A stretch of 64,000 bases of DNA from NCBI GenBank assembly GCA_030141605.1, contig JAQGDQ010000882.1, positions 20,644-84,643 on the forward strand. The letters are read 5' to 3'. The translations under genes and the position numbers were made by a program. How positions within the stretch are numbered: the stretch's first letter is position 1; every line of letters begins with the position of its first letter. Below, piece after piece: positions 8,958 to 50,900 of the stretch. The notes beneath the pieces were generated by a model. It searched no databases. It saw only the letters and a program-made list of their open reading frames with translations, and was not told where the DNA came from. The DNA is from Tubiluchus corallicola. Its lineage: Eukaryota > Animalia > Priapulida.

Positions 8958-11900
8958 ATGGCGAGCGTGATTTTGGTAAAAGTGGTCTGTCTTGCCGTAT
9001 TTTCCGTCGGCTTTTCGTCATCTACAGAAATCACACCTGTAGCTATATGGGGATCAAACAGGTAAACGTTTTCTAAGTATTTGTTATAGTGAAGATGCCT
9101 CTCAGAAGTTTGTAAATGAAAATGCGTCACAACGTTTTCCTTCAAGTTCAGAAATGACTAATGTCAGTAATGGTAATGAGGTGTTCTGCTTCATAACCAA
9201 TAAATTGGGACACATTTTTGTTTTTACCGCACATCGCTAATTTGGCGTGTTGCTTTGCTTACTTTAAAATTACCGTTTCCCTACTGTCCCGGTTTTTTCC
9301 TTTAAATTTAAAATTACGGTACCTATTGATATAACAAAATAATAACGAATAAATAATTATTAACTTCGTTTTACCATAATTACAATCAAGTAAAATTAAA
9401 CTAACAATTCTTTACTATACAATACATAAAGCAATTTTACAACTTTAATCAGACAAAGAATAATGAAGTATTCAATGGGTGATCATTTTTAGTCATAATT
9501 AATATTATGTGGCAAGTTGTTCAGCTCACAAGCCAAAGCTTGTACGAGAGACTCTGACAATGAAACAGAGATCTGTTAGTACAAAAGGAGATGTGGATGA
9601 AGTTGCTAGTGACATTGACAAGAGTAGAGATATGACAATATGTAACACAGCAGTAAACCTGATTTTGTTAAGTAAAATTAAAATAAATACAACGTCAAAA
9701 GAAGGATGACAAAAAGTAAATAGTTATGCAATTAGTCACCTCATAATTAGAATACAAGTAGGAGATTTGTGTTCTTGTAGTAAGGTCACGAAAAATTGTA
9801 ATCAAAAATCATATTAACAATTCTTTCCTCATAACCAGGTCTATTTACAGGGTTCCCGCGGTCAGGGAAAATTCTTGAAAATGCTGGCTATCCTGGATAG
9901 TCAGGGAAAATATAATTTGGTAAAAAGTTAGGGAAAATGATGAAAATGGGGTGGAAGGTCGGGGAATTTTTCAGCGATTCTTGTCCAAATATAATTTTGA
10001 TATTACAGGCTCCCAGTTGCAATTTCTGTTCAATAATAACGATTGGTGGACACATTATGTAGCAATATACGTATGAATGTCCATACACAAAAATGTTTGA
10101 AAATGTCATGGAAATTTATTCTAAAGGGGAACCATGTATTTAGCAAAGTACAGTTGTCTTTAGAACCATATCTGATGTTGAATAAAATGAGAAAGCCGGT
10201 TTTTTGCACAAGCAACGACAGTCTTTCTATATCATTTTTCAACATGTATTTTTGGTACAGGGTGTTCCAAAAGGACCACACACACACACATATATATATA
10301 TATGTATATACTTAACACTCGACTGTAGTTCTTTGTGATTTTGTCAGCCTGCTTCAGCTGATTTCTACTACTATTTCTTTAGGAACACCCTGTATAAAGG
10401 TTATTTTGGAGGTGACACACAGACGCGCACGCATGCACGCACACACATACACACACACACACACACACACATATATACTTAACACTCGACTGTAGTTCTT
10501 TGTGATTTTGTCAGCCTGCTTCAGCTGATTTCTACTACTATTTCTTTAGGAACACCCTTTATGAAGGTTATTTTGGAGGTGAGTGTGTTAGATTATATCA
10601 CTTGTCATTGAGATCCTTGCAAAACCAGAGAGCGGACAAAAATACTTTGCTTTTTTATTTTTAATGATTTATTCTTTTCTGGTTTTGCAGGGATCTCGAT
10701 TGACGAAGTGTACCCGTGCGCCAGTGTGTTAACACACTTCGCTCACTTTCTGTATTTTGACGACGCTCCGTATCTCTAAAAGTTGTGATACGTCATCATT
10801 TACTCTGATACTTCTTCATTAGGATCTCTAAGTTGTGGAAGTCTCGTGTCTGTGAAGTCTAGGACGTTTAGCTATCACCTTTTCAACTTGTTGCTACATT
10901 GAATGTGAGTTTATGCTCCGTATCTCTAAAAGTTGTGATACGTCATCTTTTACTCTGATACTTCTTCATTAGGATCTCCAAGTTGTGGAAGTCTCGTGTC
11001 TGTGAAGTCTAGGACATTTAGCTATCACCTTTTCAACTTGTTGCTACATTGAATGTAAACTCTCAAAAGTTAGTTACCGCTGTTTCAGTTTGGTGACTCA
11101 GTGCCTGACAATTTAAATCACGTCCCTCACGCGAGGTTCAGATCTTCTTGCGTAAGCAAGCATAGAGTTCATATTAGGTTTCTCCTCAAGCTATAGACGT
11201 GTTGAATGTGTACTAACCATCTTCCCGAACATCGTTTCAGTTTGGTGAGTTAGAGCCTGTCAATTTAAATCACGTCTGTCACGCGAGGTTCCGATCTTCC
11301 TGCGTAAGCAAGCACAGAGCTGATATTAGTTTTCTCGTCAAGCTATAGACGTGTTGAACCTGTACTAACCAAACATTGTTTCATCGCTACGAATGATGGA
11401 TGTAACGGCTTTGTTCAAGGCTTGCGTAAAGACTGTAAAAATGCGCAACAAAGCGCTTGGCATTGGCAATGATGTCGATAAAAGCATTCTGAATAGAAGC
11501 AGGAAATGTGAATTTTCTCAAACTGCCAAGGAAGTGGTAAAGGACGTCGGAGAACTTCGCGCATTTTTGCTCAAACACAGAAAGGATTATGTCAATGTGG
11601 GGCACTTGACGTCGGAAACCGGTCACATGACTGACGTTCAGAGAGACCAGATTGATTCCGCTGCTACCGAGTTTGTACGTAAATGTACGGCAAGGATTAT
11701 GCAGTTAAAGAATCAAGTAGCGATGAAGGGCCTGTCCAAACAAGCGGTGGAGCATCGCCAGCGCGTTCTTGATCTCATCCAGGCGTACTTAAAACTGGTT
11801 TGTAAGATTTTTAGTGAACAGCGTGCAGTCAGGATAAGACGGAGCGAGGACCTCCGGCGTATTATGCGATTTGAACCGGGAAAGTCTCCAAGTCTGAAAG

Positions 11901-14900
11901 CTCAGGCGTCTTCGTCGGCCGGGAATTCGAAAGAAGGAACCCCTCCAGAGAGTTTGTCTAAAGTTTCAGACAGGCGTAAGGAAGATTTGGAGAAAACAGA
12001 ACGGCCCTCGAAGGTGGCAAAAATGGCTTCAGGTATGGATGACGAAGAATCCGGGTTGTCTCCGGAAGAAATTGCTCAGTTTGAGCAGGAAAACACTTAC
12101 CTGTATCGGGACATGAACAACATAGTGGAAGAGGTTCGGCAGATTGAAAGCTCGGTGGTGGAGATCACGCGGCTACAGGAAGTCTTCACGGAGAAAGTTC
12201 TGGAGCAGGAGAAGGACATTGACAGAATTTACGATGCCGTCGTAGGTACGACGGAGAACGTAAAGGAGGGGAACGAACAGATTAGAGAGGCGATGAAAAA
12301 CAATGCGGGATTTAGAGTTTGGATATTGTTCTTCCTGGTCGTGATGTCACTGTCGCTTCTTTTCTTAGACTGGTACAATGCCTAAATAAAAGTGAACCTG
12401 TCTACTTGGACACAACGTCGAATTTGTAAATATTAGTGATAGATTGTTTGATAATCGGAGTCAGTGATTGGTTGAATTAGTGACAGATTGTTTGATAATC
12501 GGAGTCAGTGGTTGGTTGAACTAGAAAAAGGTGATTTGGAATGACACTAACTGATGCCTGTTTTCTATTAATTGAATTACTAGTATTTAGCAATGGGCGA
12601 TTAATAGATTAATCGAATTAATCACGATTACAACCATGTATAAATCAATTTATTCGATGATTGAACAGTAATTCGATTAATCGACATTAACCGAGAGTAA
12701 AATATACGTCAATCAATCAATCAGTTTATTTCACTCCATCAATACATATACAATACATCAACATACAATTCGGACCAGTGCAGCAAGCTCACTGACTCCG
12801 GCAGCTCCTGCAGCCAACCTGGTGCCAAACGTATCGCTCCGTTTTCCTTTGGACTACACCGGGGAGGAAGAGAGGGGATTCCTGTTGTCTGGGCAACTCA
12901 GGATCTCCATACACCTTGCCCAGGCGTGCACCCTGGAGACGTTCAAGGATCGCACTGCTCAGCCACAGTCGACGCTGCAGCTTCATCAATGTGATCAATA
13001 ACTGACTCTCTTGGTGCACACTCCATTGTCTTCCGAGACAGAAGGATGCCAACCAATAATGTGATTTAAAAAAAGAAACAGTGTAGGTAAAAAGCGTTGA
13101 TGAAGTCAAATCAACCAAACTGCTGTAAGTGTCACTGACAAAAAGGCAGTATGTTAGCACAAATAAATGGAATTTTTTCATTTTTTCTTAATTTTTCTCA
13201 TCTTCCACAATGCACACAATCATGAACCACAGTGTTGCAAACTGTGGGCTTCAAATTCAATGACACGCGATGCTTGTAGTGACATAGTCATTGAGTAGTT
13301 AACAAAAGATCATGTATTATGCGCCTATAAAATAGTTTCCGAGTACAGAAATGGCAGGCAACGGTGAAGCTGTGAAGACATTATAGGTTATATTTCACTG
13401 CTGTCATAGAAAAATATGGCTAAAACATGGAGAATTAATGTCAATTGGAAATTTCATTTATGACTGTATGCATAGATTTGTGAATTAAATAGTATAACTT
13501 TGTTAGCGGACGTATAACCGCATGACTATGATTATCGTATAGGTAAAATATTTGTTTATGAAATGTCGTACAAATGCTTAGTAAATAGTTGTTTTCTCTT
13601 CATAGAGTTTACAACTAAATTTGTATATTTGTATATATATATCTTGTGCAGCTATGTTGAGTCAAATTGTTAGTATGATCTATAAATCATTACCCGAGCT
13701 CTGCCCGCTGATAAAACCATCGGGTATGCGTCGAGTTTGTAATTCTCATGTTGAAAATTTGATTTTCAGAAATAAAATATCTATCTATCTAATTATTGAA
13801 TTACAAGAACAGGATTATAATCAAATTGCAAATTTCTTAATCACTCATCAATACTAGTATTACCATCACATATATTTGATACTAGTCATTTAAAAGTGAC
13901 AGTCTTAACTGGCAGGCGTGTCTTCATGAGTTACTTCATGAAACGTGCAACATTGCCATCTGGATCGGCTCTGTGGTGCTGATGATTCTGGAGGTTAGAC
14001 GTCTATCGAAAAAATTGAATTTGATGCCAAATACCTTTAAAGAGAAGGAGAGAGCCTGCTCTGATCGTGCACTGTTAACACTAATTTATGTCTAATTTAT
14101 TGCAGTCAGAAAGGTTGCATTACGCTTAAACCTTAGTGGGTATTGATTGACTTACTCTTACCTGTGATTTTGCATTAATTGTGCTGTGAAAATAATCCAG
14201 TCAAAAATAGTCATTAGAGAAACATAACGAACGATTTGTATAAATTGTGGCCACACCAATAATACACTTTATTAACAAAATTCAAATTTAACTGTTACAC
14301 TTTACATTTTAAATGAAGTTACAAATCATAAGAAAAATAATCACATAATTCACAGCACTTTAAATGAATAATCTCATATATAGACCTATATAAAAAACAA
14401 GAAAAAGGGGACCACCTTTTGTGGTACCTGCTGATAGGTGGTCACCGATCAGCGGTGACACTTCCTTTTTCTAGGCAAAGTTAACTATGCATGAATGAAG
14501 CATACGATCTAAATAATATTGTAAGGCCAGCAAAGAAGCCAGGCTTGGTTTAAAGCGGATTTTCCGACAACGTCGACTCGTGTAGCCTGTAGTTTGTTTC
14601 GACTGCCGATAATTATTCTGTTTAAATTCTGTGAATGTTGACCTTCGGGATTTACTGCATTCTTCTCTAAAATTGTAACCAATGAGTTTGGTTTCTGTAA
14701 CCAGTTATATTATTTATACTCAATATCTGTGATCTATGTAGTGTAACTTAATGAATTTTTAGTAAGAAATGATGCTGGGGAAGTAATTGGTGCAGTGCTG
14801 TCTTTACTTCCGCATTTTGTACATTTGATTTTGTACCTGTATTTGTATGTGGTGATTTGGCAGATCAGTTAATAAATCGATAAAATCTTTCATTATCATA

Positions 14901-29974: not shown

Positions 29975-30073
29975 CGCCGAGAGGGAGGATTGTCAGACGG
30001 GTTGATTAGTTGTTAATAATGTGTCAAATTATTTACTTAATGTTCCTGCATGGTAATGATGTTGTAAGGTAAA

Positions 30074-31238
30074 TGTGTGTGTAAAGGTAACTTATTATAC
30101 ACACATTATGCACACTATATGTGTATAATGTGTGTTTAAAGGTAACTTATTATACATGCATTATGCACACTATATGTGTATAATGTGTGTTTAAAGGTAA
30201 CTTATTATACATGCATTATGCACACTATATGTGTATAATGTGTTAAGGTAACTTATTATACACGCATTATATATATGTGTATAATGTTAAAGGTAACATT
30301 ATACATTATGCACACATATTATAATGTTTTAAAGGTAACTTATTATACACGCATTATGCACACTATATGTGTATAATGTGTGCATAAAGGTAACTCATTA
30401 TACACGCATTATGCACACTATATGTGTATAATGTGTGTTTAAAGGTAACTTATTATACATGCATTATGCACACTATATGTGTATAATGTGTGTTTAAAGG
30501 TAACTTATTATACACGCATTATGCACACTATATGTGTATAATGTGTGTTTAAAGGTAACTTATTATACACGCATTATGCACACTATATGTGTATAATGTG
30601 TGTTTAAAGGTAACTTATTATACATGCATTATGCACACTATATGTGTATAATGTGTGTTTAAAGGTAACTTATTATACACGCATTATGCACACTATATGT
30701 GTATAATGTGTGTTTAAAGGTAACTTATTATACATGCATTATGCACACTATATGTGTATAATGTGTGTTTAAAGGTAACTTATTATACACGCATTATGCA
30801 CACTATATGTGTATAATGTGTGTGTAAAGGTAACTTATTATACATGCATTATGCACACTATATGTGTATAATGTGTGTTTAAAGGTAACTTATTATACAT
30901 GCATTATGCACACTATATGTGTATAATGTGTGCATAAAGGTAACTTATTATACACGCATTATGCACACTATATGTGTATAATGTGTGTTTAAAGGTAACT
31001 TATTATACATGCATTATGCACACTATATGTGTATAATGTGTGTTTAAAGGTAACTTATTATACATGCATTATGCACACTATATGTGTATAATGTGTGTGT
31101 AAAGGTAACTTATTATACACGCATTATGCACACTATATGTGTATAATGTGTGCATAAAGGTAACTCATTATACACGCATTATGCACACTATATGTGTATA
31201 ATGTGTGTGTAAAGGTAACTTATTATACACACTATATG
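30074..31238. repeat. 55-bp minisatellite (~21 copies) just downstream of the ATP6AP1 stop
   Basis: Unit AAAGGTAACTTATTATACACGCATTATGCACACTATATGTGTATAATGTGTGTTT. Confidence 0.95.
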
Positions 31239-32406
31239 TTGCAGTTTAACTGACTGGCCATTGGCATAGTTGTGTCTAGTCTTTCGCTGGATTACCGCTG
31301 TGTTTACTGGTCTTGAGGGAAAATTTCATTTTAGAATTCTGTCGGCTCAATATCTATAATGGATGTAACAGGCATTACGAAAGTGTAAACTTTTGCCATT
31401 GGTGTTTTATTCATACATAATTGTTTATCGAAGATATAGGTTAGCATAATTAGGTCAAATTAGGTAACAAATAATTGGATAGTTCAGCTGATTATAATAA
31501 CTCATTCCGACAATGTTTGGAACAGCCATATTTTCTTTACTTTTGGTTGTATGAAGTAAAATGTATCGATTAGCACGGAGTAGTATCGCAAACGTTTGTA
31601 CACTTAATACATTTTAAAAAGTATTTTATTAAAGATGGAGAATATTAGTTGTTTTCAGCTAAAATCATTTCTCAAGAGTCTAGCAATTTAAACGAGTAGA
31701 AGATGCTGTTATGCACAAGACTGTCTTTTCTTACCGCATCTTTTAAACTCTGAGTCACTTTGCATTATTATGTTAAGCAAATTTCTTTTGAACTGTCTAT
31801 CCGTTATTGCACTGTGAATTCCTTTAGTTTTCATGCCATTTTTGTAATCATGTGATGTGAATTTGTGTTGCATTTTGTACGTAGTTTGTTATTTTGGCTA
31901 AAGTTTACCATTCTCCCGCACACAAGGAATTTGTTTGTGAAGCTCATTAGGGTGAGGGTGAGGGACCATCCACACATATAACAATATCGAGTTTTCAGCC
32001 GATTTTGAGGACCCTACCTGTCTTGCGTTGTAACGGCATTATCACTGCCCCCTATTGATTGACATGGATATCCCACCTATGTACCTTTCGTACACCTTCC
32101 TCCTCCTTCCAAGGACAGGTACCAGCATCACTTGTTGATTAACGGCAAAACCATCAGCGGATTCTAATTTCACTCCGCCGGGATCAGGGCCCTTGTAGGG
32201 TCGTCTGCTGCTGGCACGCACAGGTGTCATGAGTAAATCATGTCTGCTTGCCCTGCTGCGTGAATTCTGCAGCGTTACCATGTCTCCTATCACCAATCTC
32301 CTACCCTAAACTTGATATGTGGATAGTCAGTTAGGGTTAGGATTAGGGGTAGGGTTGGGGTTAGGGTATTTAAGTTGTGGGGATTGTTAAACTCCTTCCG
32401 TTATAT

Positions 32407-35912: not shown

Positions 35913-36590
35913 TCTTAAAACTACCAGTGAGGAATCAATTCTCGCTGGGCTCAGTAACAATGTAATTTTTTAAAACTGCGCTACTGGGTGTTGCAAAAAA
36001 AACTGTGACATTGACAACCGCGACGGTCGGAATGTATAAAAAGTTACGTGACGTCTTACTAGAATCAGTTTCATAATTAAAACAGATATTAAACAATCGT
36101 TGCACAAAAACTAACAAGGCACAAAGAAAAGCAGTGCAAATGTCAAATGTTTAAATAGTCTTGTAGAGGCTCAGCTTCTGTGCTGTGTAAGACAAAGAGA
36201 GACAGAAAAATGTTTCAAGCTGCCCAGCTGCCGTTTGACGAACTGAATTCTGACGAACACACATTCGACAGCTCGTGCGTAATCACAGCAGTAAATATGA
36301 AATCTGAATTTTATCTTTAAAAAATGCCTAGTTTTGGTACAACACACTGAATATCTTACAGTAGCACTGTGCTTCAATTTTCACATTCGCATGTTTGTGA
36401 TGTAAACGATAGTTGGGCTCGTCTGTCGTTAATTAATTTTAAGTTTTTAATCTATTATTTAATTATCAGAAATGCTTTTGCAGTATTAATTGTGTTAGAA
36501 TTTGCACTATCTTCCTGTCTTCCATCGAGGTCCAGCAAACCGAGATGTGATTGTATTTTGCAGCAAAAATACTAATAATTTGTTCGAAAA

Positions 36591-36750
36591 TTGTGCAGTA
36601 AAATCACAGCTAAATTGTGCAGTGAAATCACAGCTAAACTGTGCAGTGAAATCACAGCTAAATAGTGCAGTGAAATCACAGCTAAATAGTGCAGTGAAAT
36701 CACAGCTAAATTGCGCAGTGAAATCACAGCTAAATTGTCCAGTGAAATCA
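36591..36750. repeat. 24-bp minisatellite; longer array at 53657-53960
   Basis: Unit TGTGCAGTGAAATCACAGCTAAAT at both loci. Confidence 0.92.
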
Positions 36751-36769
36751 CTACGCTTTTGCAGTACTA

Positions 36770-37210
36770 TGTGCTGATTTATTTAAACTTGTGTTGCCCC
36801 CTCTTTTCTGTTATAAACTGGTTTCCTTTTAAACAGGTCATGTGACCAGACTCTTACCTGTACACTTACCTGTAGATTGGAGTCACTCAGGCGTTCACAC
36901 ACTGCAGTGACAAATTGTTTAGCGTCAGTCATTGATTCGTTGTTATAATTTCATAATTACACTTATACAAGATCACCATGTAAGTTGATTTCTTAATTTC
37001 TTACATCTTGAACTTTTGTTTATTAAAAAGACTAAAGATTAGATTTTATAATTTGCGTAAAACTTTGTTAAAGTTAATTAGATAAATTTGGTTTAGATTT
37101 CGCAGTAAAATTGAGCAAAATTATATAAAATTATCTTATTTGTTTTCAGATTAAACAATACAAGCTACACAATTATGTTGTTGGAGTTTTTTTTATAAGA
37201 AGGTAGCACA
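36770..37210 (+). repeat. 5' LTR (441 bp)
   Basis: Direct repeat of 44014-44453. Manual comparison gives about 18 substitutions and 1 indel. TG...CA termini. Confidence 0.96.
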
Positions 37211-37431
37211 GTTTAATATGATTCTTGGTGTAATTGACATGGACGACAGCTATACGGTGTGTCCTTGAGTAAGCTGGTATCTGGGGCAACACTGCAGAGC
37301 GGTTTAACTTCGAGCTACGCTACGTGTATACCTGATAGTATTATATTGACAATGAAGCCAGAGCTGCTGTACGATACTACAGGATTTAACATTACGAGCA
37401 AGTAGAAATATATTTGGACTTTTAAAGCAAA

Positions 37432-39498
37432 ATGACTGATCCTTCAAACCAAATTCAGTTGAGAAAACTTGAACTTAAAAATAAAAAGCAAGAAGAATTA
37501 AGAGATATTCTTCGTGAAAGAGGGTTGATAGTTCATGGTAATAAAGCTGAATTAGTCACAAGGATAATTGAAGATGAGCACAGCAAGTGCATTGCAAGTG
37601 CAATGCATGAGTGCAGTGCATTGCAAGCAGCAAGCACTCATGACAAGGAAGCCGGAACTGATGCGGATGAAAAATCAGCAAAAGCAACTTCAGAGCGGAA
37701 AAGCAAGCATAGCGCAAAGGGAGCTAAGAGGGATTCTCTATTCGCATCTTCCAAGACAGCTTCAAAGATGAGTGAGAGAAAGTTACGACTTAATGAACTG
37801 AAAATACAAGAGCAGGAATTAAAGCTGCAAGCAATGAAAATAAGGCATGAACGTTTGCAGAGTGAATTCTCAGGTGAGCAGAAGTCGCAGGTAACTGACA
37901 TTAAACCAGCCTATTATGTGGCGCCACCTGTTGCCGAAAAATGGACTAAACAGAAGGTCGCTGAATGGTTGAAGCAATCTGAAGACGTATCTGCAGATTT
38001 GCAACAAATAAGTGGAAAGTTTGAAGGCTCCAATAGTACAAATAAATACAAAACGCAAGCCTTCGTAACTCTTGCAACAAATGACAAGTATGCTTTAGGC
38101 GCTCTAGTTTTAGCAAGCAGCCTGCGTCGTGTCAGTACAGCTCGTTACTTAACTGTCATGGTTACAAATAATATATCGCAAAATATGATGAGGCATCTTC
38201 GCGATAAATTTGACTATGTTCAACTAGTTGAAACAATAGATGGTAATGATCCTGAAAACCTGTATTTATTAGGAAGACCTGAGCTGAACGTAACCTATAC
38301 CAAATTACATTGTTGGCGCCTCACACAATTTAGCAAGTGTATTTTCTTGGACGCCGATACGTTGGTCCTGCAAAACATTGATGAACTCTTCCAAAGAAAA
38401 GAGTTTTCAGCAGCACCTGACGTCGGATGGCCCGACTGTTTTAATAGCGGCGTGTTTGTGTTTCAGCCAAGTATAGACACGTTCAATCAACTTGTTTCGT
38501 TTGCGACGTCTACGGCTAGCACGTTTGACGGAGTTGACCGAGGGATGCTAAACCAGTACTTTAGTAATTGGGCTACAGTGGCTCTACCTATGGGCGAGGC
38601 TAGGTACGAATCAAGAATGTTCAGCGAGTGGTTTCATATTTACAATGCTGACGTTATGCCTATGTTACATGAGCAACGTATAAGCAATGAAGCGCGATAT
38701 AATTTCCGTGATTTTAAAAACTTGCCCGCGGATGACTTAAATGTTTCAGCACCCACATTTGCCCCCGGGTTTCCAAGTAAAAGCGTGAGCCTTTGCTCAA
38801 CCTCATACGTAGGCAAACATAAACAACTGCCAGCAACGTCGGCTATAGATGAACCTACTCGCGGATTGCAATGGATGGACCAATCTCAGGACATGACAGC
38901 ATTCATGAATATCATGCGTGAAGGACAGCGTCAGCAAATGAACATGTATAATGCCATGCAGCTTCCTGCGGTTGAGCTTGAAAAATGTGATGGCAATGTG
39001 ATGCATTTCTGGCGTTTTATTAAGCGCTTCGAGGCCAGTGTAGAGAATTACACAGAAGATGAGGCAGCAAAACACACAAGGTTACTACAACTCTGCACTG
39101 GAAGAGCTAAGGCTGTCGTGGAAAGTTGGCATTATATGGATCCCCATATGGCCTTTAGACGTGCTAAGTATTTGCTAACAGAACGGTTTGGATCTCCCTA
39201 CATGGTAACTCAGGCTTGGTTGGATAAAAATAACAATTTTAGTTGTATAAAAATACAGGAGCCAGAAAAGTTACAGGAGTTCTCAGATGCACTTGTTGGG
39301 TGTATTGAAACATTAAAATGCATGAACAATTTGAGTGAAATCAATACTCAATCCGGTTTACTGCAAATTATTAGAAAGCTGCCATATAAGTTCCAAGACA
39401 AATGGAAGGATGTTGTGTGCCGGTTACTGAAGACGCAAAACAGGAACCCATCCATATATGATGCAGTTGACTTTGTGAAAAAGCAGCAGAGAAGATGA
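37432..39498 (+). CDS. Chimeric Gag: SAP motif + coiled coil + glycogenin-like GT8 domain + BEL Gag core (DUF1759-like)
   Basis: 688-aa open frame. SAP-like [33 protein letters not shown] (~37474-37572). Glycogenin motifs [88 protein letters not shown] (38056-38577). BEL gag [15 protein letters not shown]...[19 protein letters not shown]. The ORF ends at a frameshift. Confidence 0.92.
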
Positions 39499-42400
39499 AT
39501 CATCCAGTATAGGAGAATTGTATAACAATGGCCCAAAGAGAGTAAAGCAAAGCAGTGCAGCCAAAAACTTTGCCAGCATTTCTAAAAATATTGCAACTCC
39601 TGGTGCTTCTACGCAAGTTATAAGGGTGAAAGAACGCAATTTAGAAGAGAGCAAGAAGCCAGGAAACAATGCCAAACAATGCTTGTTGTGTAACTCGGCT
39701 GAGCATGTATCATTACAAAAATGCAAAAAGATTTAGCACGATGAATGACATGGAGAAATTGGCATACACAAGGAAAGAACGTTTGTGCTACAATTGCCTG
39801 GCTAAAGGGAGACACAGAGCCTACCAGTGTACAAAACCCCCCTGCGATGTGGATGGATGCAACCGGAAACACTCTTCCTTACTTCACCATGCATTAGAAA
39901 GAAATGCACAAGCACAGCAGAACAATGCAGCTAGCCAAACGGATATGGATCGGCAAAGCACAACTCGAGCAGTTTCGTGTCTAAATAAAGCTTCCCGCAG
40001 AGTCACAAAGGCGGCGTTACCAGTAGTGCCAGTCTTAGTACATGTAGAAGTGAAAAGACCTGTAAAAACATTGGCATTATTAGATCCAGGTTCTACAAAC
40101 ACCTTTTGTTCGAAAGCACTGTTTAATCAACTTGGAGCCAAAGGAAAAGAAAATGTTCTGTTGTTAACTACTATAGAGAAGAAACATAGCAGGACAGACA
40201 CAATGGTAACTAGCATGACAGTCATGAGGATGGATAGAAACAACCATATAGAGCTCCCTTGTGTATTTGTTCGGCCTACTCTCATGTTAGATGTTCAATC
40301 TCTAGCAACGCATGAAGATGTGATAAAATGGCCGCATCTCCGAGACTTAGATGATGTTCTAATGAGCATAGAGGAGAAAGATCAAATGGAATTAGGTCTC
40401 TTGATTGGTCAAGATGTCGGTGAAGCATTAATTCCCCTTGAAGTAAGGACGGGGGAAAAGGACGCCCCATATGCCATTAGAACCAAACTAGGTTGGACGC
40501 TTAATGGCCCTATAGGGGGCGGTAGAGTCAATATGTCAGTAGCAAATAACATGATTTTAACAAACGGAATGCAGAACCAGGATGAAAAACTGCAAAACCT
40601 TGTTGAGAGATTTTGGAAATTGGACAGTGTAGATGACGATGGACGTCTGTCCAGAGAAGACATTAAAGTACTAGACATTTGGGAGAAATCAATCACAAAA
40701 CGAGGTGACCATTATGAACTGCAGATACCATTCAAAGAGGAAAAATGCAAATTACCAAATAGCCGGGAGATGGCAGAAAAGAGGCTGGCTAGTTTGGGCA
40801 CCAGACTAAACAAGAATCTAAAATTACATGAAAAATACACCGAGGAAATGAATGATTTACTTAGAAAGGGATATGCGGAGAAGGTTGAAGAAGCAGACGA
40901 CCAAGATGTCACAATGAAATGGTATCTCCCACATTTTCCTGTTTATAATGAAAATAAGCCTGACAAAACTCGGATAGTTTTCGATTGTGGAGCGAAATGT
41001 GATGGCATCTCGCTGAACATATTAGCATTACAGGGACCTGATCTGACCAACACACTTCTTGGAGTATTATTGCGATTCAGGGAGAAGCCCGTTGGAATGA
41101 TGGCAGACATAGTGGGCATGTTTCATCAAGTCTTCGTTGCTCCTCAGAACAGAGACATGCTACGCTTCCTGTGGTGGCCAGATGGACAATTGGATAAACC
41201 ACCACAAACTTATAGGATGACAGTGCATTTATTTGGAGGGGTTTGGTCCCCGAGTGCAGCATCCTTTGCAGTCAGGCGCACGGCAACAGATAATGTGGAA
41301 AACTTCGACTGTGGGGCAGTCAGTACTGTGCTGCGCAATTTCTATGTTGATGACTGCTTGAAATCCGTGGATACAGCAGAGCAAGCTATTAACCTGATTT
41401 CTTGCTTGTCTGCATTACTTGCCAAGGGAGGCTTTTGTTTAACCAAATGGACCAGCAATATCAAGCAGGTTTTGGCAGAAGTCCCAGAAGAGCACAGAGG
41501 CAAACTGGTTCAAAATTTAGACTTGGCTCATGATCCACTTCCCATTGAGCGTGCCCTTGGGGTCAAATGGGAGGTCGAAGGAGACACCTTTGGAATCCAG
41601 GTCAAAACTAGGGATAAACCTCACACCAGACGAGGACTTCTAAGCTCACTGGCTTCGGTATACGATCCCCTAGGAATGGTAAACCCATTTGTTTTGCAAG
41701 CAAAATTGCTTTTCCAAGATGAATGCCGCATCAAAACGAAGTCTTGGGATGATAAATTGGAGGATGCCACTGAGAAAAAATGGATTAAATGGAAGAGCGA
41801 ATGCCAACTTCTAGAGAGTTTCAAAATGAGCCGTTGTGTGAAGCCTTGTGATTTTGGCACGGTTTTGACAAGTGAACTGCACCACTTTTGTGATGCATCG
41901 CAATATGCATACGGAGCTGTTAGTTATATACGTTTAACGAATGACTGTGGTTCAGTTCATGTATCATTCCTAATGGCAAAGTCTCGACTAGCGCCAATTA
42001 AGGGTCTCACAATACCCAGACTGGAGCTGTGTTCAGCAGTACTAGCAGCAACAATGGACAAAATCCTAAGAGACAAGTTGTCTTTATACATAGATTCCTC
42101 AACTTTCTGGACTGATAGTGTCATAGTTCTGCAATATATAAGAAACACCACAAAACGGTTTCACACGTTTGTGCAGAACAGAGTGACTCAGATTCTTGAA
42201 GTTTCATCTCCCATGCAGTGGCGTCGTGTAAATTCACTGGAGAACCCTGCTGACGACGTCTCCCGTGGGATGGATGCGGCTTCCTTGATAGCCTTGGAAA
42301 GATGGAAGCATGGACCAAGCTTTCTGCTAGAAACTGAAGAACATTGGCCGCAACTGAACATAGATGCAGAGAAAGACTGGATAGAAAACGACAAGGAAGT

Positions 42401-43930
42401 CAAGAAAGTGGTTACAGTTAACAACATTGAAGCGAAAAGTGAAGCAGATGTAGATGTCATCAATCAGCTGATAACGCATTACTCATCGCTATATCGATTA
42501 AAGAGAGCGGTAGCATGGATACTGAGAGTCAAAAGAACACTTCTAGCTAAAATTAAAGGAAAAGATCTCACTGAACTGGCTCACCTGACAAAGCCTGAAC
42601 TGGATGAAGCCTTACACGACATGTACAACGAGAATGCTTTGGTGTTGAACGTAGAGCATTAAAGTCAAAGGATCAGCATGTCGCAAAGTCAAGCACCTTA
42701 TACAGACTAAATCCATTTATGGACGAAAAGTGTGTCCTGCGTATTGGAGGCCGCCTGAAGAGATTAACCATGAATAGAGAAGTAAAGCATCCAATTATTC
42801 TACCTAAAGGTCATAGACTTTCTCGGCTTATTGTAAAACAATTCCATGAAGAGAATGGTCATGTTGGAAGAGACCATGTAATGGCATTGGTAAGAGCAAA
42901 GTTCTGGATCGTAGGCATAAGAGTGATTGCTCGACAAGTTTGCCATGAATGTAGAGAATGCCGACTACGTCATTCGCAACCTATGAAGCAGAAGATGGCT
43001 GACTTGTCGAAAGAGAGGATTGAATGCACTGATGTGTTCTCTGTGGTTGGAGTGGACTGTTTTGGTCCTTTTCTTGTCAGACGTGGCAGAGTAGAAGTAT
43101 AACGCTATGGAGCACTATTTACGTGTCTCTCAACTAGAAGCATCCACTTAGAAGTGCTATACGCCATGACAACAGACTCTTTCATCAAAGCTTTACACAG
43201 ATTCTGCAGTAGGAAAGGAAATCCCACCAAGATTAAATCAGATTGCGGAACGAATTTTGTGGGTGCAGACAAAGAGCTGAAGAAGTCACTGTTGGAATGG
43301 AATCAGGACGTAATAAGCAATGAACTACTGCAGAAAGATATTGAGTGGGAGTTTAACCCTCCAAGTGCACCTCATATGGGAGGAATATGGGAAGCTATGA
43401 TAAAAAGAGTAAAGAAAGTGTTACAGTCAGTAATGATGGAGCAAATCACCGATGATGAAGGTCTACACACACTATTTTGCATAGTGGAAAACATTATCAA
43501 TAGCAGGCCTCTAACGACACTTTCTGATGATCCTGCAGACTTTAACCCTTTGACGCCAAATCACCTTTTGCAGATTCATTGTGAAACCAGCTTACCACCT
43601 GGCAAATTTGTTTCGGCAGACATCTACAGAAAGAAGTGGCGGCAGATTCAGCATTTAGCAAATGTCTTCTGGCATCGATGGCGAACTGAGTATTTGCCAA
43701 TGTTACAGTACCGCTCTAAATGGAACAAAGAGAGAACGAACATCCAAGATGGAGATGTCGTTCTCATCATGGACAATGCTCCCAGAAATTGCTGGCTGCT
43801 AGGGCGCGTGATTGAAAGACATTTTAGCAATGATGGATTAGTCAGAAGTGTCACCCTCAAGACCAAGGATGGATTTCTACGAAGACCCATCCACAAGCTC
43901 TGCCTGTTAGAAAGTGTATATGATAATTAG
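39499..43930 (+). pseudogene. Disrupted remainder of the BEL polyprotein: Zn knuckles, aspartic protease, RT, RNase H, integrase
   Basis: Three Cys/His knuckles (CLLCNSAEH, CYNCLAKGRH..QC, CDVDGCNRKHSSLLH); protease LLDPGS; RT WYLPHF, RIVFD, FYVDD (~41343); RNase H HHFCDASQYAYG, FWTDS; integrase HEENGH..C..C, VGVDCFG, SDCGTNF, GGIWE. Frameshifts near 39480, 39510, 39727 and 42614, plus an in-frame TAA at 43100-43102. Confidence 0.93.
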
Positions 43931-44013
43931 TTTTGTTAGTAATTGACACATTACTTAAAATGTTAATTAAAGGAGAAAATGTAAATGCTAAAAGGGAGCA
44001 TTTAAGGGGGCGG

Positions 44014-44453
44014 TGTGCTGATTTATTTAAACTTGTGTTGCCCCCTCTTTTCTGTTATAAACTGGTTTCTTTTTAAACAGGTCATGTGACCAGTCTTTTA
44101 CCTGTATACTTACCTGTAGATTGGAGTAACTCAGGCGTTCACACACTGCAGTTACAGATTGTTTAGCATCATTCATAGATTTGTTGTTATAATTTCACAA
44201 TTACACTTATAGAAGATCACCATGTAAGTTGATTTATTAATTTCTTAAATCTTGAACCTTTGTTTATTAAAAAGACTAAAGATTAGATTTTATAATTTGC
44301 GTAAAACTTTGTTAAAGTTAATTAGATAAATTTGGTTTAGATTTCGCAGTAAAATTGAGCAAAATTATATAAAATTATTTTATTTGTTTTCAGATTAAAC
44401 GATACAAGCTACACAATTATGTTGTTGGAGTTTTTTTATAAGAAGGTAGCACA
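44014..44453 (+). repeat. 3' LTR (440 bp)
   Basis: Preceded by purine-rich PPT AAAAGGGAGCATTTAAGGGGGCGG and followed by TSD TACTA. Confidence 0.96.
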
Positions 44454-44932
44454 TACTAATTGTGTTAAAATGTATACTTTTTATCGGACTTGAACATGGG
44501 TTAGTATATGAAAAATCATCCTGTCTTCCTATATATCATGATAGGACTGGATCAGATGGTTTCACAACATGATCAGCTATAGATCAGCTACAATTATACA
44601 CGTTTTCTTGTCAAATGATATTGTTAGGTCAGTAGCTCCTGGGGTTAAGACATAAATTATGTCAAGATATGTATACTATATGTAAATTATGTATACTTTT
44701 TATCGGACTTGAACATGGGGTAGGATATGAAAAATCGTTCTGTCTTTCTTTAAATCATCTAAACTACCAGAAATATAATTGACCATAAACAACTGCATAG
44801 ATCATACGGCAATGCAAGTGGCTATAATGCACAGAACGCACGTGATCACACAATAAGCATTGATAAAACACACATTAGCCGGAATCACAAAGGCATCGAT
44901 TTCGTCTTCGAAACCTGAACCTAGTAACGAGG

Positions 44933-47900: not shown

Positions 47901-50900
47901 TTAGGTAATCAACAACACAAACAAAAATATAAACAAACACTACGCACCTTCGACGCCACAGTCACACGGTACATGAACCTCCGTAGAACTACTCGGCTTG
48001 TTTACAGAATGGTGTCGACTAGAGGGCGCTATTGCTCGCGTCGTGTCATCCGTACTGTCACTACTAACATTGGGCGTAGGCGCTGTACCGCTTGAACCGC
48101 TAGCTTCTTTCAATAATGGCGGTTTTTTATCTGAGGGAAAATGAAGATGATGAAAATGACGATGTTTAATGTTCAAACAAAGCAAATGCTTCAGAGCTGA
48201 ATTAAATACTAACTAGGGCTGTAAAGATACACCTAGGTCACGATACGATACGTATCACGATGCTAACCAAACGATACGATACGTATCTTAGCGGCAACGG
48301 CAGTTTATTAAACTTTTAAAATCTGCATCATCACAAAGTCAGATATTCTATCTGACAACGGCAATGGCAAGCTTAGAAACTTAGATTCATTGTAAAAAAG
48401 ATGAGGATGCCTTGGAAACTTAGCTTCAAGCACTAACGTTGAGAGATGTGTTGTAAAAATGTTGAGAATGCCTTAGAAACTTAGCTTCAAGCACCAATAT
48501 TGAGAATGTGTGGTAAAAATGATGAGGACGCCTTAGAAACTTAGATTCAAGCACCAACGTTGAGAGATGTGTTGTAAAAATGATGAGGATGCCTTAGAAA
48601 CTTAGATTCAAGCACCAACGTTGAGAGATGTGTTGTAAAAATGATGAGGATGCCTTAGAAACTTAGCTTCAAGCACCAACGTTGAGAGATGTGTTGTAAA
48701 AATGATGAGGATGCCTTAGAAACTTAGATTCAAGCACTAACGTTGAGAGATGCGTTGTAAAAATGATGAGGATGCCTTAGAAACTTAGCTTCAAGCACTA
48801 ACGTTGAGAGATGTGTTGTAANNNNNNNNNNNNNNNNNNNNNNNNNNNNNNNNNNNNNNNNNNNNNNNNNNNNNNNNNNNNNNNNNNNNNNNNNNNNNNN
48901 NNNNNNNNNNNNNNNNNNNNNNNNNNNNNNNNNNNNNNNNNNNNNNNNNNNNNNNNNNNNNNNNNNNNNNNNNNNNNNNNNNNNNNNNNNNNNNNNNNNN
49001 NNNNNNNNNNNNNNNNNNNNNNNNNNNNNNNNNNNNNNNNNNNNNNNNNNNNNNNNNNNNNNNNNNNNNNNNNNNNNNNNNNNNNNNNNNNNNNNNNNNN
49101 NNNNNNNNNNNNNNNNNNNNNNNNNNNGATGAGGATGCCTTAGAAACCTAGCTTCAAGCACCAACATTGAGAAATGTGTTGTAAAAATGATGAGGATGCC
49201 TTGGAAACTTAGCTTCAAGCACTAACGTTGAGAGACGTGTTGTAAAAATGATGAGGATGCCTTAGAAACTTAGCTTCAAGCACCAACGTTGAGAGATGCG
49301 TTGTAAAATGATGAGGATGCCTTAGAAACTTAGCTTCAAGCACTAACGTTGAGAGATGTGTTGTAAAAATGATGAGGATGCCTTGGAAATTTAGATTCAA
49401 GCACCAACGTTGAGAGATGTGTTGTAAAAATGATGAGGATGCCTTAGAAACTTAGATTCAAGCACCAACGTTGAGAAATGTGTTGTAAAAATGATGAGGA
49501 TGCCTTGGAAACTTAGCTTCAAGCACCAACGTTGAGAGATGTGTTGTAAAATGATGAGGATGCCTTAGAAACTTAGCTTCAAGCACTAACGTTTCACAAA
49601 GAATTGCGACAGTAATAGTAAAAAACTTACAGATAGGTCGAGGTATGGAATGTCTAGCAGCATTATCCAACTTAGACTTCTTTGGTGACATTTTCTTTGG
49701 TGAGCCTGAAAAAGCATTAAGAATTTTATAATTGCTACAAGATTATATGTCTTATGCACCGTTTAAGATGTATGCACTGTGTAAGATGTACACACTGTGT
49801 ATGTACACATTGTTTAAGATGTACACACATACTGTGTATGTACGCACTGTTTAAGATGTACACACTGTTTAACATGTAGGCGCTATTTAAGATCTACGCA
49901 CTGCTTAAGATGTATGCAATGTTTAAAATGTATGCACTGCTTAAGATGTATGAACTGTTTAAGATGTATGCACTGTTTAAAATGTATGCACTGCTCAAGA
50001 TGTATGCACTGTTTAAGATGTACACACTGTTTAAGATGTACGCACTTTTTAAGATGTATGCACTACTTAAGATGTATGCACTACTTAAGATGTATGCACT
50101 GTTTAAGGTGTATGCACTGTTTAAGATGTACACACTGCTTAAGATGTACGCACTGTTTAAGATGTATGCACTGCTTAAGATGTATGCACTGTTTAAGATG
50201 TATGCACTGTTTAAGATATACATGATGTTTAAGATATACGCACTGTTTAAGATATATGCACTGCTTAAGATGTACGCACTGTTTAAGATACATACGATGT
50301 TTAAGATATATGCATTGCTTAAGATGTACGCACTGTTTAAGATGTATTTGTAAGTACAGTAAACAAACAGCCTGATTTCTAAACAGAGCTGAAAGTGATT
50401 GATAAAAAAAGAAACCTACTTTTAGATGGCAATAACTGAGTTGGCTTCTTCAAGCGTGGATGAGTCGGCAATGCGTCTAATGAATCTATGGACATGGCTG
50501 AGAGAGTACTCACACTGAAACCACAGATAAAAAATATACGAAAGTGAAAACCACAAGAACTGGCATGAATCAGATGCCACGCTTAGCCAAATTTGAAAAC
50601 GTCACGAGGAAACCTGGTATCAAAAAAAGCACTATTACAACTTGCTAACCTCACATAATTATCGCAATATACTCATCGGTAAATTCTATAGATGGCGATG
50701 TCATCTTGGTATGCAGTTTAGGGTTTAGTCGTGCCCCAGAAAACACAGAGAGTCAAGCAAACTGAACTTAGTGAACAAATGCAAAAATAAGTGTGGGAAA
50801 TAATACATTGAAATCTACCTGGAGTGAATACTATCTCCACCGTGTAACTGGAATGGTGGCTTGACACCGTGACGCCGAACTCCACCAGATGGCATCGTTT

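Follow-up and report, generated by a model that had tools for sequence, protein, structure and literature searches.

LTR retrotransposons that have captured host domains are already known, and the captured-domain cases with which we compare our locus involve RNA modification, apoptosis or ubiquitin, and nucleotide metabolism. Template switching onto cellular mRNA is documented in animals, a BEL case included, namely a mosquito retrocopy flanked by a BEL element, according to the accessible part of Tan et al. (PMC5131818). Work on orchid Gypsy elements describes it as a rare event for an LTR lineage to fix an additional domain (PMC9289625). The BEL/Pao superfamily, whose particles have barely been studied, has LTRs of 0.2–1.2 kb and genomes of 4.2–10 kb, and the Belpaoviridae profile comprises gag, pol, and env only, with no enzyme domain in Gag (PMC8742986). 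In the window, the 64,000-nucleotide stretch of DNA that we analyzed, lies an element that departs from this profile. Its Gag ORF contains, in frame, a catalytic domain that belongs to glycogenin, which initiates the synthesis of glycogen. The searches made here returned no earlier case of glycogenin inside Gag.

A glycogenin domain in frame within a BEL/Pao Gag

The element is a BEL/Pao LTR retrotransposon (Table 1). As the original prediction had it, two LTRs and a perfect target-site duplication bound the element; the LTRs measure 441 and 440 bp, the duplicated sequence is TACTA, and with a length of 7,684 bp and a target-site duplication of 5 bp, which is typical of BEL/Pao, it has the dimensions of this superfamily. 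The LTRs aligned with 422 matches, 18 mismatches, and 1 gap, a divergence of 4.2% (K2P 0.042). The pol domains follow the order PR-RT-RH-IN and include the Pao-specific PF05380 (E 1.3e-45) and PF18701 (E 2.3e-31), and Gag combines a DUF1759 core with a CCHC nucleocapsid, as expected of a BEL Gag. The element thus resembles Belpaoviridae (Semotivirus; PMC8742986) in its LTRs, size, Gag zinc knuckle, PR-RT-RH-IN order, Peptidase_A17, and DUF5641. Inspection by eye revealed no clear primer-binding site, which in Belpaoviridae is complementary to tRNA-Arg or tRNA-Gly, downstream of 37210, and no second copy of the element was present within the 64-kb window.

Table 1. Features of the element and of its fusion ORF, in window coordinates
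Feature	Position	Strand	Size, basis or remark
BEL/Pao element	36770-44453	+	7,684 bp
5′ target-site duplication, TACTA	36765-36769	+	
5′ LTR, TG...CA	36770-37210	+	441 bp
ORF SAP–linker–glycogenin–Gag core, 688 codons	37432-39498	+	Open reading frame
SAP domain, aa 15-47	37474-37572	+	PF02037, E 4.7e-8
Glycogenin GT8 catalytic core (glycogenin-1 residues ~4-179)	38056-38577	+	Pfam, similarity, alignment
DXD motif of GT8 core	38350	+	
GGDQG motif, two residues altered in window copy	38527-38544	+	
In-frame deletion point in window copy, acceptor-Tyr region gone	38578	+	159 bp (53 codons)
Probable C-terminal helix of glycogenin domain	38579-38670	+	MAFFT alignment; weak alone
BEL Gag core (DUF1759), aa 520-660	38989-39411	+	Pfam
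Protease/RT/RNase H region	39645-42662	+	DPGS motif from 40077; YVDD at 41343
BEL-type CCHC zinc knuckle	39786-39887	+	Frame differs from that of 688-codon ORF
Pao RNase H/Peptidase_A17	41625-42119	+	
Integrase: H2C2, DDE core, DUF5641	42608-43930	+	
Purine-rich tract preceding 3′ LTR, likely PPT	44004-44013	+	Sequence
3′ LTR	44014-44453	+	440 bp
3′ target-site duplication, TACTA	44454-44458	+	

When joined across the target-site duplication, the flanks resemble a second repeat copy just upstream, and the element sits within a very abundant short repeat (36439-36520 and 44454-44530). The window also contains many tandem arrays, including ones with units of 55 bp (30025-31397), 24 bp (36564-36779), and 18 bp (49748-50431). 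An assembly gap of 306 N (48822-49127), at a distance of 4.4 kb from the element, is likewise set among tandem repeats.

The uninterrupted 688-codon ORF joining SAP, glycogenin, and Gag was borne out by the open frame together with Pfam and similarity matches. All three domain matches expected of it (SAP, Glyco_transf_8, and DUF1759) were found: Glyco_transf_8 matched aa 212-321 (E 8.8e-12), and DUF1759 scored 24.2 bits when the whole ORF was scanned, below the cut-off of 25.4, and 26.5 bits, above it, only when the C-terminal part was scanned alone. Amino acids 207-384 matched glycogenin-1 residues ~3-179 with an E value of 5e-67, and a glycogenin of the bivalve Mya arenaria is 68% identical to the glycogenin region of the ORF. 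The prediction of ~200 aa of glycogenin-like sequence stood as to the strength of the match and had to be narrowed as to its extent, with ~174 of ~204 aa firmly glycogenin and an in-frame gap of 53 residues. A coiled coil between SAP and glycogenin was judged by eye only. In the linker (37930-38013), a SAM_PNT (SAM/Pointed-like) match at aa 167-194 was too weak (E 0.045) to be accepted.

In a GT8 tree of 52 proteins, which we chose from 236, the domain fell with the glycogenins of animals and apart from those of fungi (98/92); its placement within the animal glycogenins was not resolved, and its branch is long (0.59). Over the 174-aa core, its identity to the animal glycogenins in the tree is 55–69%. 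The domain is in one piece, in contrast to 18 of the 80 metagenome glycogenin loci, whose matches are split into several; by analogy with documented cases, capture from a spliced host mRNA is plausible. Absence of introns is by itself weak evidence of capture, because the window also holds an intronless ORF for syntaxin-18 (11369-12385, + strand; open, 338 codons; PF10496, E 4e-17). That ORF is either an intron-poor gene or a retrocopy, a warning that genes with few introns, or further retrocopies, may occur in this host.

The fusion in public contigs and databases

To follow the fusion beyond the window we used contigs from five DNA-type or unknown-type public runs (X1–X5), which represent three samples and three studies, X5 being the third study. 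X1–X3 possibly derive from the window's own sample, and without them two studies remain (X4 and X5). A sixth run (X6), possibly of RNA, contributed no contig, a result that says nothing about expression. Among six runs, four hold the stretch, in two studies. The 5′ junction of the glycogenin domain (38056) was bridged in X1 (37882-38268), X3 (37966-38200), X4 (37620-38174), and X5 (37987-38201), and the 3′ junction (~38670) was bridged in X1–X5, in pieces that include some 87% alike. The X5 contig at the 5′ junction has 35 differences in 215 bases, and a further X5 copy has 23 in 183 bases. One X3 contig runs from 38202, inside the GT8 core, to 39377, in the Gag core. No joint that skips the domain and no loose end at a junction occurred among 35 contigs over 37960-38760 (21 pieces listed, 16 further ones not), nor was a domain-less form of the element seen among them, with the proviso that contigs can show presence, not absence.

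The fusion is therefore a trait of the family. A misassembly, or a one-off insertion into a single copy, is an extremely improbable explanation: X1–X3 may be the window's own sample and no listed contig piece spans the whole element, but the studies behind X4 and X5 bridge both junctions, with copies only 84–87% like the window among them. We consider both possibilities largely ruled out because the junctions are bridged across samples and studies and in diverged copies. The contiguity at both junctions and the sharing of the fusion with other copies, as envisaged in the original prediction, thus hold, and none of the three outcomes that it had named as fatal (a misassembly, a missing GT8 match, or other copies without the domain) was found.

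Three further observations concern copy number and related sequences. LTR bins were far deeper than internal bins in 4 of 4 runs (in X1, ~32,000 versus ~500–1,700), hinting at many solo or related LTRs elsewhere; contig depth is not taken here as copy number. In X1 and in X4, one contig each matches only the most conserved glycogenin motif (38306-38345) and is unlike the window on both sides of it, and depth jumps there (in X4, ~4,400 versus 13–27 nearby), for which a second, more distant and abundant glycogenin-like sequence may be the source. Contigs also enter the glycogenin part from other sequence at 38134, 38215, and 38546 (33–153 loose letters), joins that could be rearranged copies or host exons.

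Searches elsewhere returned no glycogenin–Gag fusion in the proteins, contigs, and openly accessible literature covered. No BEL Pfam domain accompanied any of the 120 listed near-length matches (of 1,611) or any of 116 long matches, and no long relative of the Gag part emerged among 326 candidates. The only match to the Gag part among 372 proteins (best 150 of 7,485) was P0338, a Logan sequence of 157 aa that is 75% alike and too short to show its N terminus. Neither gag nor pol was present at any of the 80 metagenome glycogenin loci, most of them short; viral contigs yielded no related sequence, and Atlas no usable match. The exact 688-codon ORF was absent from the protein collection searched, and the accessible part of a BEL/Pao survey mentions no such domain (PMC3118150). 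Absence from these databases is weak evidence, because they hold few animal transposon proteins and do not include Repbase or Dfam.

Damage to the window copy and apparent constraint on the domain

The window copy can be neither an active enzyme nor an active element. Its Gag ORF stops at 39496-39498, upstream of the zinc knuckle, its frame changes near 42608-42662, and its integrase is interrupted by a stop at 43100-43102. Frame-breaking indels occur in the window copy and in at least some public contigs, and no intact copy was seen in either. Close to the gag-pol breaks, small indels set the public contigs apart from the window sequence, so Gag and Pol likely formed a single continuous frame in the family.

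The glycogenin domain is itself damaged. In a comparison with host glycogenins, 113 of 119 of which could be anchored, 100 of the 113 carried 53 residues more than the ORF between two anchors, and the alignment places the acceptor Tyr195 region among the residues missing at 38578. One X3 contig has 159 extra bases, or 53 codons, exactly at this position, and loose-ended contigs break off there in X1, X2, X4, and X5. An X1 contig of 93 bases shows no difference from the deleted form (its short side is 30 bases, one under the bridging rule), so the deletion is probably real but private to the window copy. The case for reading the 159 extra bases as the acceptor-Tyr segment consists of their length and place. 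Among the near-invariant glycogenin columns at which the ORF has a residue, 68 of 77 are kept in the window copy. At 3 of the 9 lost columns other copies carry the host-type residue; these 3 include both GGDQG changes, which are host-type in contigs of X4 and X5. Downstream of the gap, the alignment with the C-terminal helix gained no significance in a profile test, since 138 of 1000 shuffles reached an equal or higher score. A profile of 109 glycogen-synthase-binding tails detected no such tail (−1.7 bits; 42 of 500 shuffles as high), and direct recruitment of glycogen synthase is therefore unlikely.

To ask how the domain has evolved, we counted the 40 best-supported of 102 differences between copies; the contigs are unphased, and the counts are of sites, not of independent events. 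These 40 comprised 20 silent and 20 replacement differences. Within the GT8 core, the differences found in at least two runs were 12 silent and 5 replacement (best 40 of 102), against an expected silent share of 22–31% (p 2e-5 to 8e-4), which corresponds to a pN/pS of 0.12–0.18. At 4 of the 5 shared replacements, both GGDQG positions included, the other copies are host-type. GT8-core differences confined to a single run (best 40 of 102) were 7 silent and 10 replacement (p 0.06–0.24), as would fit decay after insertion. Apparently, then, the domain was constrained while the family transposed and has decayed since. The silent excess could partly reflect the history of the host gene if capture was repeated. 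The fusion recurs in several diverged copies whose differences are for the most part silent, so the glycogenin domain was likely useful to the element, and we are fairly confident that the fusion is a selected, family-level one. The proposal that the domain was kept as part of the capsid polyprotein is accordingly upheld at the level of the family, by its persistence and the signs of purifying selection, and fails for the window copy, whose ORF stops before the zinc knuckle and whose element is broken.

Possible roles of the domain and comparison with known systems

Our favored reading of the whole, which we put forward tentatively and at somewhat less than even confidence, is that the window holds a decayed copy from a family that captured glycogenin once and kept it as a working, enzymatic, and dimerizing part of Gag. 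A single capture from a host transcript by RT template switching would have been followed by selection that retained the domain as a working part of Gag, and intact ancestors would have translated one Gag-Pol polyprotein. In the part of PMC12267440 available, glycogenin is described as binding UDP-glucose, dimerizing, and autoglucosylating Y195, and as contacting synthase through a separate C-terminal tail. The element kept the catalytic part and, as far as the profile shows, not the tail. On our reading, the Gag-borne domain would dimerize and attach short glucose chains to itself, and glucans primed in this way would link Gag or particles with glycogen granules. Either alpha-1,4-glucan primers would sit on Gag or on immature particles, or these would associate with host glycogenin; they would thereby gather on granules in glycogen-rich cells, for example of the germ line. 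That the retroelement primes alpha-glucan on its capsid precursor, with particles that form on, or disguised as, glycogen granules and enter germ cells with the glycogen, is a more specific picture that we regard as doubtful.

The domain might instead be a tolerated passenger, captured in frame without benefit and kept open and folded only by sitting inside an essential Gag. Retrocopies mediated by LTR elements arise commonly, and many keep the frame (among young ones in Drosophila, 14 of 17, in the accessible part of PMC5131818). The 53-residue loss in the window copy also kept the frame, and the family gives the impression of few, decayed copies. Nevertheless, the 35 contigs include no domain-less derivative even though such a derivative would be spared the cost, the fusion has lasted over ~16% divergence, and other copies are host-type at catalytic-motif residues, so we think a passenger somewhat unlikely. 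The same catalytic residues bear on a non-catalytic scaffold, in which dimerization would aid Gag assembly or the domain would bind glycogenin or glycogen without glucose transfer. Glycogenin is a dimer (PMC12267440, text available in part), the domain lies N-terminal to the capsid core, where a module for assembly or targeting would be well placed, and the synthase-binding tail is absent; DXD and GGDQG are, however, apparently kept at the family level, a retention that a pure scaffold would not need, and we hold this explanation to be unlikely. We give a still smaller chance to manipulation of the host, in which the protease would release a tail-less competitor of host glycogenin that shifts UDP-glucose or glycogen metabolism where the element replicates. 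The polyprotein of Burro elements includes domains that regulate host processes (in the excerpt available of PMC6431247), and lack of self-glucosylation can turn glycogenin into a suppressor of synthase (GYG2; same partial text, PMC12267440), but the suppressing glycogenin in that account is attached to synthase, and the tail profile revealed nothing in the element that would bind it.

If our favored reading of a working, enzymatic domain is true, a carbohydrate-priming enzyme in Gag would connect the assembly of the retrotransposon, or its targeting to the germ line, with the metabolism of glycogen. The domain resembles animal glycogenin-1 (GT8; PDB 3u2t, 3t7m) in its DXD and in most near-invariant residues, and differs in being embedded in Gag without a synthase-binding tail and, in the window copy, without the acceptor-Tyr segment. 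Among LTR elements, planarian Burro/GYPSM1 Gypsy elements likewise carry host-like domains (MATH, BIR, BCL-2, SUMO-like, and ankyrin) in the polyprotein frame, but they are giant Gypsy elements whose extra domains are regulatory rather than a glycosyltransferase, and in Burro Gag lies N-terminal to them (PMC6431247, as far as its available text goes). The AlkB m6A demethylase of an orchid Gypsy lineage is also a host enzyme fixed in LTR elements with its cofactor residues conserved; it comes from a plant, occupies a separate ORF, modifies RNA, and has demonstrated activity, whereas the glycogenin described here is fused inside Gag and known from sequence (PMC9289625, accessible portion). Metazoan LTR-mediated retrocopies are like our element in that part of a host coding sequence lies within an LTR element, and are mostly young chimeras in discontinuous, non-autonomous carriers, in the portion available of Tan et al. 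(PMC5131818). Unlike them, the glycogenin element retains all gag-pol domains, and its insert displays an excess of silent differences.
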